Translations under genes and position numbers: made by a program | DNA from: Escherichia coli | GTDB lineage: Bacteria > Pseudomonadota > Gammaproteobacteria > Enterobacterales > Enterobacteriaceae | Length of the DNA stretch: 64,000 nucleotides | Direction: 5' to 3' (one strand) | Assembly: GCF_001677475.2 (NCBI RefSeq) | Contig: NZ_CP015229.1 | Part shown: positions 47,914-50,823 of the stretch, in pieces | How the letters are laid out: each line of letters starts with the position of its first letter | Numbering within the stretch: position 1 is the first letter of the stretch | The notes under the pieces: generated by a model | What the model was told of the DNA's origin: nothing | The model's input: the letters and a program-made list of their open reading frames with translations, nothing else | Databases searched by the model: none

Positions 47914-48719
47914 TAAGAACGCTGCCAGAGGTGAATATTAAAGTCCGTCTGGCAGTCGAACACTTCTTTTGCTACCAGTGTTTGCCAGACTTCTGGCTTC
48001 GCACGCCAGGCAAACGGCGTCATCTGCAATAATGCGACGGCTTCGTCACCGCGAAGACGCATCGGATAACACAACTCATCACTCTGCTGTAATGTAAAAC
48101 CTTCCAGTTGTTCTGCATGTGGTGCATGAAGATGTACTTCATTGTAAATCAGCCCCTTCAGCTCCATCAAATGTCGCGGTCCCGGCGTGGCAGTAATGAC
48201 CCAACCGCCAGGCTTCACTACTCGCGCTAATTCTTCTGCTTTACACGGCGCGTAAATACGTATTATGGCGTCCATACTGGCATCGGAAAACGGCAAACGG
48301 TGGCTGGAAGCAACACAAAAAGTGACCTGCGGATAGCGTTTCGCCGCCGCTTTTATCGCTACCTTCGAGACATCCAGGCCAAACGTGGTGATTTCGGGCA
48401 GCGCATCGGCAAATGCGTGTGTGTAATACCCTTCACCACAGCCAATATCCAGCACCGCCGTGGCCTTTTCATCAAGCCGTTCCCGCAGTTGGGCGACAAT
48501 TGCATCACGCAGCGGCTGATAATGTCCGGCATCTAAGAATGCGCGGCGTGCTTGCATCATTTCCGCGCTGTCGCCCGGATCACGAGACCGTTTATGCTGA
48601 ACGGGCAGCAGATTGACATACCCTTCTTTCGCCATATCAAACTGATGTCGCTGGGGACAGATATAGCTGTTTTTTTCACGCGAAAGAGGCTGATGGCAAA
48701 GTGGACAGGAAAACGACAT
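47910..48719 (-). CDS. rlmA: 23S rRNA m1G745 methyltransferase RlmA
   Basis: ORF 47910..48719, 269 aa; N-terminal Cys4 zinc motif (CPLC...CPQRH); SAM-binding DIGCGEG. Confidence 0.85.
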
Positions 48720-48812
48720 GACAACTCCGGCAGGATACTAAAGGCCGCAAGTGTAACGCGAATCACGCGGCGGGCAAATATCCGAACGCCAGGAGCGAAG
48801 ATAAAGCAAAGT

Positions 48813-48840
48813 AAAAAGCCTCGCATTCGACGAGGCTTTA
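48813..48840 (-). terminator. Rho-independent terminator after cspC
   Basis: Minus strand: aaagcctcgtcgaatgcgaggc followed by U5. Confidence 0.55.
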
Positions 48841-48884
48841 TAGCGAGATTGAAGCGTATTCACACTTCAGATCAGTGGATTCGA

Positions 48885-49094
48885 TCAGATAGCTGTTACG
48901 TTAACAGCTGCCGGACCTTTCTGGCCGTCCTGAATTTCGAACTCAACGTTCTGACCTTCAGCCAGAGTTTTGAAGCCATTACCCTGGATAGCGGAGAAGT
49001 GTACGAACACGTCTTTGCTGCCATCAGCCGGAGTAATGAAGCCAAAACCTTTAGACTCGTTGAACCACTTAACCTGACCTTTAATCTTTGCCAT
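48885..49094 (-). CDS. cspC: Cold-shock-domain protein CspC
   Basis: ORF 48885..49094, 69 aa; [23 protein letters not shown] motifs. Confidence 0.95.
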
Positions 49095-49107
49095 TTGAAA
49101 AATTCCT

Positions 49108-49251
49108 TAGATTGTTTTCTTCGCCCGCAGGCATAACATAGATAAAACTGACACATTACTGCATGAGGCACCAATATAAGGCTCGGCAGAGAAGCGGTAT
49201 TCAACGTCAACGTGTTTACTCAGGACTTCTTTACTGAAAATGCCACACATA
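49108..49251 (-). CDS. yobF: Small protein YobF (47 aa), upstream of and probably co-transcribed with cspC
   Basis: Manual translation of minus strand: [47 protein letters not shown]. Confidence 0.7.
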
Positions 49252-49876
49252 AACAGAACTGTACCTCGTTTAACCCGAAATCTGTTATCACATACAACGT
49301 TAATTATGGCAAGCCATTTTTAAACATGTCTCGATCAGACGCACAAATCTCGATACGTCTTCCACTTTTTTTGCACACTTATGCAACGGAATACGCGCCG
49401 ATATATCATTGTGCTTAACCTTGCCAGTTCAGGCAGATACTTAAACTGACGTATTTTCTAACATAGTTCAATAAGTTCAGTTGTTCCAGGCCAGTAGGAG
49501 AAGTTATTACATAGTGCGTGCAATATCACATTTTCTGCTATGCAATGAATAAAAAGTTATATCACTTTTTCTCATAAAACAGTCAGTTAACGGCCACCAA
49601 TTACCCCAAAGAGAAGTCAATCCCCAATGGTATTGTAAATTTAAAATAAGAAAAATTGATGAATGCGCAAAAAAATCAAGAGAGAAACGTTTCGCTAATA
49701 AATAATACCACGCTTAATCACAAATCCGATGTAAACATCCTAATAAATTAATGGGCTAAATATCTTTTTCTGATATCTCGTTACGCAAATAAATAATATG
49801 ATAATTATTTGAAGTCAGACCAGAGTTTTAATTTGAAGCAGTTGCACCATGACAGTGCGTATAATCAGGATGAATT

Positions 49877-49904
49877 GAGTAACCCTTCAACGACGGGGTT
49901 ACTC
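49877..49904 (-). terminator. Hairpin downstream of yebO (possible terminator)
   Basis: gagtaaccc...gggttactc 9-bp stem just 3' of yebO stop. Confidence 0.4.
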
Positions 49905-49919
49905 AAGATTGAGGAAGGA

Positions 49920-50207
49920 TTATCGTTCGGCGACCAGACGAATAATATCTTCGTCTTCAACCGATTTTTGACTCTCAACGGTCTTTTTATCTGCTTTCTC
50001 TGGTTCATTTGCTTCGCACAAACGACGTAACAGTGCATTTTGACGTTTTTGCTGATCCAACAACGCCTCAAGCAGTTCAATCTGTTCGTTAGTCCGTGAA
50101 CTGGCACGATTGATAAAAAACCACAAGATGAGCCCGATAAGAAGAACCACCACCGATACAACCAAAGACGCTATGTTCATCACGCCTGAATTTACAACTT
50201 CGTTCAT
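49920..50207 (-). CDS. yebO: DUF2633 membrane protein YebO
   Basis: ORF 49920..50207, 95 aa; N-terminal TM then charged/coiled C-terminus. Confidence 0.75.
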   Translation of the reverse strand: MNEVVNSGVMNIASLVVSVVVLLIGLILWFFINRASSRTNEQIELLEALLDQQKRQNALLRRLCEANEPEKADKKTVESQKSVEDEDIIRLVAER

Positions 50208-50281
50208 TTCACCACCTCTGAGTAGAGGCGCTATTCTACCACTGCTGGAGAGGAAGAAAATCTAGTGCTGAAAAAATGATA

Positions 50282-50425
50282 TCACCACGGGATAAACTGG
50301 TTAATGGCACAAATTCCGCTGAAAAATTGTACATCCTGATCGCACATCATGTTGAATACCTGCGCCCAAAGCAGCAAGCAAGCCAACACCACGACAACCA
50401 GAACGACCCATCGAAACTTTTTCAC
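50282..50425 (-). CDS. mgrB: PhoQ-inhibitory small membrane protein MgrB (47 aa)
   Basis: Manual translation of minus strand from GTG: (M)[46 protein letters not shown]; ggag RBS upstream. Confidence 0.8.
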
Positions 50426-50475
50426 TCCAATCTCCGTTTCACCTACCTTATGTCATTAAACTAGCATGCGTTAGT

Positions 50476-50492
50476 TAAACAGCGCCTAACTA
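50476..50492 (-). promoter_or_regulatory. Putative PhoP box upstream of mgrB
   Basis: Minus strand reads TAGTTA-ggcgc-TGTTTA, a direct repeat with 5-nt spacer, about 50 bp upstream of mgrB start. Confidence 0.4.
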
Positions 50493-50583
50493 TGTCGATA
50501 TTCGTGCTTTTTCAGAATGAGTCGCTTGCTTCAGCGCATATTGCCGCTACGATTAAGCGAACATAAAAAGAGAAGAGGTTGTA

Positions 50584-50823
50584 ATGCGATTCATCATTCG
50601 CACAGTTATGCTGATAGCACTGGTATGGATAGGATTATTACTCAGCGGATATGGCGTTTTGATTGGAAGCAAAGAGAATGCCGCGGGATTAGGTTTGCAA
50701 TGTACCTATCTGACCGCCAGAGGCACCAGCACGGTACAATACCTGCACACTAAAAGTGGTTTTCTGGGGATAACAGATTGCCCGTTGTTACGTAAAAGCA
50801 ATATTGTGGTCGATAATGGTTAA
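50584..50823 (+). CDS. yobH: Small secreted/membrane protein YobH
   Basis: ORF 50584..50823, 79 aa; N-terminal hydrophobic segment. Confidence 0.7.
   Translation: MRFIIRTVMLIALVWIGLLLSGYGVLIGSKENAAGLGLQCTYLTARGTSTVQYLHTKSGFLGITDCPLLRKSNIVVDNG

Follow-up and report, generated by a model that had tools for sequence, protein, structure and literature searches.

The 669-bp yebO-yobF spacer of Escherichia coli is very probably a compound, AT-rich control region for yobF-cspC transcription

The window analysed here, a stretch of 64,000 nucleotides of the Escherichia coli chromosome, carries cspC (48885-49094), yobF (49107-49250) and yebO (49920-50207) on its minus strand according to the gene calls, flanked by rlmA and mgrB, which also lie on the minus strand. 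The spacer between yebO and yobF covers 669 bp (49251-49919). The gene-free gap of about 670 bp announced in an earlier note on this DNA does exist, its true start (49251) being one base off the 49252 given there, and it is free of annotated features in both the K-12 RefSeq record and PGAP. It had also been described as AT-rich and as holding no ORF longer than 73 aa, and both descriptions were accurate. Indeed, with a GC content of 35.4%, where the window as a whole has 49.7%, it ranks within the lowest 1% of 669-bp windows, and the 378 bp that precede the distal promoter (P2, see below) have 31.7%, while the longest ORFs touching the spacer have 73 aa (49809-50030, plus strand) and 68 aa (49212-49418, plus strand). 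A 901-bp query over the spacer found matches in 5423 of the 5426 complete E. coli genomes, and at least 80% of this query is carried, in single copy, by 5409 of them. Published K-12 coordinates were converted by subtracting 1856365 from U00096.2 positions or 1858341 from NC_000913.3 positions.

Eighty Enterobacteriaceae loci were fetched via YebO, chosen as the query because YobF (47 aa) is too short; yebO, yobF and cspC were located in each, and the spacers were aligned. This comparative alignment, which the earlier note had proposed as a way of finding conserved blocks, did reveal them, in P1, in P2 and in several blocks upstream. Across 77 loci, identity is 80-100% over positions 49350-49251. 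Further upstream, conservation is at background level save for islands at 49489-49455 (P2), 49389-49370 (GCATAAnTGTGCA), 49549-49520, 49659-49650 and 49699-49680. Two records of the set deserve a remark. In NZ_CP023386.1 (L001) the PGAP locus tags jump from RS10700 (yobF) to RS10690 (yebO), and a spacer feature RS10695 may once have been called there and then withdrawn; the cspC orthologue of this record is named 'cspE' by PGAP. CACSKA010000003.1 (L011), labelled Chryseobacterium sp. 18061, contains an enterobacterial yebO-yobF-cspC locus with a CspC identity of 100% and, within the same project, has a nearly identical counterpart in a Citrobacter sp. 18056 contig (L020); the Chryseobacterium assembly looks mislabelled or contaminated.

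Two starts of yobF transcription have been mapped inside the spacer, in support of the earlier proposal that it serves as the upstream control region of yobF-cspC. Kim 2012 (PMC3415461, supplement file 2) lists a start at 1905641 with 249 reads and a 26-nt UTR, corresponding to 49276, and a second one at 1905817 with 107 reads and a 202-nt UTR, corresponding to 49452; for both, the upstream 50-mer printed there is exactly the window sequence. Independently, tagRNA-seq (PMC7075262) places yobF starts at 1907615-8 (49274-7), and a 2026 paper citing EcoCyc names the promoters yobFp1, yobFp2 and cspCp8. The proximal promoter region, P1 (49277-49350, minus strand), contains the hexamers TTGCCA (49312-49307) and GATAAC (49289-49284), separated by 17 nt and ending 7 nt before 49276, and thus correctly spaced for this start; the promoter TTGCCA-17-GATAAC is also listed by Shimada 2014. 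An overlapping set, GAGACA (49332-49327) and TGC-CATAAT (49308-49303) with an 18-nt spacing, and an upstream block, ATTTGTGCG..GATCGAGACA, are found in the same region, whose identity across the 77 loci is 0.8-1.0. The distal promoter, P2 (49453-49492, minus strand), precedes the start at 49452. It comprises a -35-like CTGGAAC (49489-49483), matching the consensus at 3/6 positions whether read as CTGGAA or TGGAAC, and a -10 element TATGTT (49465-49460, at -13 to -8) with a C just before it. The identity of the P2 block across the 77 loci is 0.67-0.76, and 63 of the 78 loci have a CTA[TA]G[GT]T motif between -204 and -217. As P2 was seen as a conserved block before the start of Kim 2012 was known to us, each of these observations is an independent check on the other. 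P1 and P2 each have the mapped start, the hexamers and the conserved block of a sigma70-type promoter.

The transcript from P2 begins with a 202-nt leader (49251-49452, minus strand) that contains P1 and whose 5′ half is poorly conserved in sequence. The P1 transcript has a short leader of 26 nt (49251-49276, minus strand), with a Shine-Dalgarno GAGG at 49267-49264, and this short leader is invariant in all loci compared. Pairing of the small RNAs OxyS and CyaR close to this Shine-Dalgarno sequence of yobF has been reported (PMC10965054, PMC5861431). The suggestion of a long cspC-type leader holds in part: with the distal start 202 nt ahead of the yobF ATG, 5′ leader accounts for about 30% of the spacer (202/669 bp), and the rest is mostly promoter or upstream DNA together with the yebO 3′ end. 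Downstream of the spacer, Kim 2012 (PMC3415461) also lists weak start sites within yobF at 1905571, 1905578 and 1905588, and the Term-seq data of Adams 2021 (PMC7815308) place a 3′ end within yobF at K-12 1907479 (49138, minus strand), 44 nt upstream of cspC; these authors class yobF as an 'upstream ORF' of cspC.

Several published data sets bear on the use of the two promoters. A sigmaS ChIP-seq peak (1905547-1905784) spans P1 (PMC4447067), and the RpoN holoenzyme, with or without NtrC, gives a gSELEX peak at 1905652 (49287), again at P1 (PMC8743547). Under nitrogen limitation the yobF and cspC mRNAs decrease 7.4-fold and 6.5-fold, with a smaller drop in an rpoN mutant, which the same authors interpret as occlusion of the sigma70 promoter by the sigma54 holoenzyme (PMC8743547). 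According to Shimada 2014, 'the 670 bp spacer' contains several RpoD peaks and is bound by H-NS. In Salmonella, a study of succinate utilisation (PMC10965054) gives the yobF-cspC start site as 1893683, with two Tn5 insertions 'in the 5′-UTR' (1893511 and 1893502) and a third in cspC (1893137). Taken together with the conserved gene geometry, these coordinates require that in Salmonella 182 nt or more separate the start from the downstream yobF ATG, which fits P2. The fusion primer of the same study begins at GTTGTATGTGATAAC, the equivalent of 49298, and this implies that the proximal start is also used in Salmonella, via GAGACA-18-(TGC)CATAAT. On the opposite strand, Maciag 2011 observed that a forward-strand yobF-yebO intergenic probe was transcribed in vitro, preferentially by the sigmaS holoenzyme, so that some antisense transcription is possible; a CFT073 ORF antisense to cspC (48552-49136, plus strand) was likewise sigmaS-preferred in vitro. 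The in vivo list of Kim 2012 contains no plus-strand start in the spacer.

The upstream border of the spacer is occupied by the yebO 3′ UTR and a hairpin (49871-49919, minus strand), recognized by its inverted repeat and by a Term-seq end. The arms (49906-49896 and 49885-49875) are 11 bp long with 100% complementarity, and the free energy of the hairpin is -15.5 kcal/mol (z = -2.5). Adams 2021 (PMC7815308) reports a 'primary' yebO 3′ end at 1908212/3, that is 49871/2, so the mgrB-yebO mRNA ends 3-4 nt past the hairpin. The tail that follows it, UUCAUCCU, is not a U-tract, and therefore this end is hairpin-defined but is not a textbook intrinsic (Rho-independent) terminator. The hairpin position is kept, despite a different sequence, in the loci that lack the hydrolase gene described below (mean z = -3.0), whereas the loci possessing this gene have no strong hairpin after it (mean z = -0.1). 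Inside yebO, Adams 2021 (PMC7815308) maps a Rho-dependent 3′ end at K-12 1908371 and further ends at 1908368, 1908477 and 1908502 (50133-50030, minus strand), which suggest premature termination within mgrB-yebO.

The earlier note had considered the spacer a candidate for regulatory RNA structure, and we thus asked how far this extends beyond the existence of a 202-nt leader. A structured cis-regulatory RNA of the thermometer or riboswitch type, in the P2 leader or elsewhere in the spacer, or else an independently encoded small RNA, is in our estimation very unlikely. An Rfam scan of 48500-50600 at a permissive threshold did return the cspA thermoregulator (RF01766) at 135.7 bits, above its gathering score. 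However, this match (48810-49270, minus strand) covers yobF and cspC, only 20 nt of it being inside the spacer, and what drives it is the coding sequence of cspC, the 5′ portion being aligned poorly and with low posterior probability; the part of the model that represents the cspA 5′ UTR falls, poorly aligned, on the yobF coding region. Upstream of 49270 no other Rfam family was significant, and a psRNA2 match was dismissed, at 16 bits for a gathering score of 65. Folding of the P2 leader tells a similar story of faint signals. Over 62 homologues the mean z is -0.7 for the whole leader, -0.65 for its first 45 nt and -1.35 for nt 45-110, where 47% of the homologues fall below z -1.64, but these homologues are related, so that the excess over shuffled sequence does not constitute independent evidence. 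Moreover, block H (49384-49377, in GCATAAGTGTGCA) is complementary to block I (ATTTGTGC, 49347-49340), and a GCATAAGTGTGCA-ATTTGTGC pairing could form in the leader. Against this, the two blocks never vary, and hence offer no covariation, and the variable part of the leader does not align reliably; at most, RNA structure might contribute modestly to the P2 leader.

Nor do the published maps point to an independent RNA. Start and termination mapping, which the earlier note had suggested, is available in published form and yields the two yobF starts and the yebO 3′ end at 49871/2. In the coordinate-sorted list of Kim 2012, the two yobF starts are the only ones on either strand between 1905641 and 1906591, the next start past 1905817 being that of yebO, at 1906591, and the Term-seq data of Adams 2021 (PMC7815308) record no 3′ end on the minus strand between 49138 and 49871; these maps cover few growth conditions. 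With no separate start or 3′ end mapped in either data set, with 20 nt of RF01766 in the spacer and with weak leader z-scores, the proposal of a regulatory RNA here did not gain ground. A simple promoter/terminator consensus scan was discarded, its sites being no more frequent than in shuffled sequence.

Unannotated small protein genes, the other possibility that had been raised, are extremely unlikely. Many short ORFs exist mechanically in such a spacer, but among those of at least 10 aa, on both strands, all except one lose their start or frame within Escherichia. The exception is a 22-aa plus-strand ATG ORF (49381-49449), antisense to the P2 leader and intact in the five Escherichia sequences, the K-12 copy being longer by 4 codons. 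We rejected it: no Shine-Dalgarno sequence precedes it, no start is mapped on the plus strand, and its Salmonella counterpart is reduced to 4 codons. Another frame looked more promising outside E. coli: in Salmonella, in several Citrobacter and in one Pluralibacter locus, a conserved ATG at -214 and a conserved TAA bound a frame of 28 codons. This ORF was also rejected: its ATG falls within the P2 -10 element, ahead of the P2 start site, its length drops to 5-7 codons in E. coli and in the majority of genera, its peptide is not conserved, and its frequency is about that expected by chance (13/62). None of the spacer ORFs combines a conserved start, a ribosome-binding site and a conserved frame; no ORF of at least 10 aa with a credible start is kept across Escherichia, and the spacer has no gene in the curated K-12 record.

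The history of the locus provides a third possible explanation. The yebO-yobF distance is bimodal, either about 590-750 bp or about 1460-1590 bp, and in the long class a gene for a 329-341-aa MBL-fold hydrolase (PF12706, E = 8e-42) starts about 17 nt after yebO (for example L009:3308-4303 and L031:3310-4335, plus about 30 other loci). The long class comprises Lelliottia, Leclercia, Kosakonia, Phytobacter, Buttiauxella, Cedecea and many Enterobacter; Escherichia, Salmonella, Citrobacter and Klebsiella do not have the gene between yebO and yobF. Members of the E. cloacae complex (L053, L059, L069, L070), which belong to the short class, retain the last 60-100 nt of the hydrolase gene as a deletion scar. 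By analogy, the E. coli spacer might be mainly a decayed remnant of this gene, a view that we regard as distinctly improbable. Indeed, tblastn, a protein HMM run against six-frame translations and sensitive blastn detected no hydrolase remnant in E. coli, at either the protein or the nucleotide level, and the homology of E. coli to the long class starts about 40 nt past the hydrolase stop codon, at spacer nt 201. The yebO-proximal 200 bp (49919-49720) are therefore specific to short-class lineages. Furthermore, even when the gene is present about 520 bp of non-coding DNA remain upstream of yobF, so that at most these 200 bp could be scar, and they have a conserved hairpin and a palindrome of their own. 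The upstream part of the spacer has several conserved elements that would suit a control region.

The first of these elements, going from yebO to yobF, is a 17-bp palindrome, CGCACTGTCATGGTGCA (49843-49859, read on the minus strand), noted for its consensus match and its synteny. It agrees with the NtrC box TGCACCAnnnTGGTGCA, as quoted in PMC8743547, at 11 of 14 specified positions, with the GCA and TGGTGCA arms present and the A at position 7 missing. The pattern GCA[CT]-N7-[AG]TGC occurs 45-78 nt past the yebO stop codon in 16 loci, from Escherichia, Citrobacter, Trabulsiella, Pseudocitrobacter and Superficieibacter, for a chance rate of 2.4% per locus. No sigma54 promoter with both the GG and GC cores (GG-N10-GC) was found on either strand between 49200 and 50000. 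By its resemblance, CGCACTGTCATGGTGCA may be called an NtrC-like site.

The second element is a 16-bp palindrome of the LacI/GalR type, AGCGAAACGTTTCTCT (49681-49696), singled out by its conservation and by its match to the rbsD operator. Of 78 loci, 70 share the unchanged core CGAAACGTTT, over a range of genera that reaches from Escherichia to Buttiauxella and Cedecea, while the flanks diverge, and in the long class the CGAAACGTTT palindrome is located 28-78 nt after the hydrolase stop codon. The box is symmetric at 7 of 8 half-site positions, and 15 of its 16 positions are identical to the K-12 rbsD operator AGCGAAACGTTTCGCT, the 16-bp core of the operator region taken directly from K-12 (TCAGCGAAACGTTTCGCTGA). 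Across loci, the mean match is 13.6/16 to the rbsD operator, for 10.0 to an ideal PurR site and 9.4 to an ideal Cra site, the latter two being measured against what we take to be the ideal consensus sequences. A 20-nt direct repeat with 90% identity (49688-49707 and 49779-49798, plus strand; CGTTTCGCTAATAAATAATA and CGTTACGCAAATAAATAATA) copies half of this palindrome together with its flank, in E. coli and not in the other Escherichia species. The resemblance of AGCGAAACGTTTCTCT to an RbsR operator and the evolutionary constraint on it are apparent from the alignments.

Its position is less easily reconciled with such a role. The centre of AGCGAAACGTTTCTCT is 236.5 bp upstream of the P2 start, and in the list of Kim 2012 no mapped start lies beside it, as promoter proximity would demand of an RbsR operator. 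A distance of 236 bp upstream of P2 is unusual for a classical repressor. We conjecture that TGGTATTAT, just upstream of AGCGAAACGTTTCTCT, might be an extended -10 element, specific to E. coli. In the searchable literature we found no published RbsR gSELEX or ChIP, PurR or ChIP-exo binding at this locus. That the CGAAACGTTT palindrome is a working operator for RbsR, or for a related LacI-family protein, tying yobF-cspC to the ribose or nucleoside status of the cell, is graded as unlikely. Such an operator might act through a conditional far-upstream promoter, through looping, or as a roadblock to mgrB-yebO read-through. One observation from Salmonella lends it relevance: rbsR and cspC mutants were independently recovered in the same screen, both genes being needed to restrain succinate utilisation, and the authors left the route from RbsR to RpoS unexplained (PMC10965054). 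If the proposal were true, the operator would provide a direct link between the RbsR regulator and CspC.

Closer to the promoters, the conserved block TTCATTGCATAGCAGAAAATGTGATATTG (49520-49550; identity 0.47-0.63 over 77 loci) sits upstream of P2 within otherwise diverged sequence. It contains a TGTGA half-site centred at about -70.5 from P2, which might tentatively be read as CRP-like. TGTGAT recurs three times in conserved blocks, at 49724-49717, 49530-49523 and 49293-49286 (minus strand; TTTGTGAT, AATGTGAT and TATGTGAT), and the related TGTGC is found at 49377-49373 and 49345-49341; for these repeats, a role as extended -10 elements (TGnGATAAC at P1) or as half-sites of the CRP type is conceivable. 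Inside the P2 leader, the block GCATAAGTGTGCA (49372-49384; identity 0.59-0.68 over 77 loci) includes GCATAA/TGTGC, nearly invariant in a 20-taxon alignment.

Altogether, the spacer is very probably a compound, AT-rich transcriptional control region, and neither a gene nor an RNA gene. Following the minus strand, the mgrB-yebO mRNA ends after the hairpin, at 49871/2. About 380 bp of DNA with 32% GC then carry conserved elements of the protein-binding type (NtrC-box-like, RbsR-operator-like and the further blocks), in a region that the literature describes as bound by H-NS and as having several RNA-polymerase binding peaks (Shimada 2014). P2 next starts the 202-nt leader at 49452, and the near-invariant P1 the 26-nt leader at 49276. 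P1 is also bound by the sigmaS holoenzyme and, with a repressive outcome, by the sigma54 holoenzyme, and the 26-nt leader carries the ribosome-binding site targeted by OxyS and CyaR. The starts and ends of the transcripts, the pattern of conservation and the absence of conserved ORFs come directly from published mapping or from the sequences. We infer that the upstream blocks are transcription-factor sites acting on P2 and P1, and likewise the identity of the factors: the RbsR-like, NtrC-like and CRP-like assignments are tentative ones, drawn from sequence resemblance and conservation.

The operon is of interest because of its product. CspC is an RNA chaperone, and RpoS-dependent stress physiology, PhoP activation in Salmonella, succinate use and the fitness of ageing colonies all respond to its level; for this reason the control of the cspC operon matters. 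The main features of its spacer, a multi-promoter and H-NS-associated region, are already in the literature and databases, so this catalogued part gains little from our confirmation. What our study adds is a family-wide map of the constrained upstream blocks and the difference between genera in the presence or absence of the hydrolase gene. The candidate RbsR-type operator is the sole new testable lead, and it is cheap to test.

How does this region compare with known systems? The closest is the published yobF-cspC control region, which is the same locus and from which the core of our description does not differ. The likeness to the rbsD operator lies in the two 16-bp palindromes, both with a central CG. 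However, the rbsD operator is found 12-31 bp upstream of the rbsD start codon, whereas AGCGAAACGTTTCTCT precedes the nearest mapped start by 236 bp, and the right half-site of the spacer box varies among genera, which is a further difference. As for NtrC enhancers, CGCACTGTCATGGTGCA shares with them the 17-bp palindrome and the GCA...TGC arms, and it is syntenic in five genera, but NtrC enhancers precede sigma54 promoters and the spacer is devoid of a GG-N10-GC promoter; moreover, the published RpoN/NtrC peak is about 570 bp away from CGCACTGTCATGGTGCA, at P1 (49287) (PMC8743547). Finally, yobF-cspC resembles the cspA family in having a cold-shock-domain gene behind a long leader (202 nt from P2). 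It differs from the cspA leaders in that a small ORF, yobF, interrupts the leader and that the 5′ UTR part of the cspA model aligns poorly, and, to our knowledge, cspC has not been described as cold-induced.
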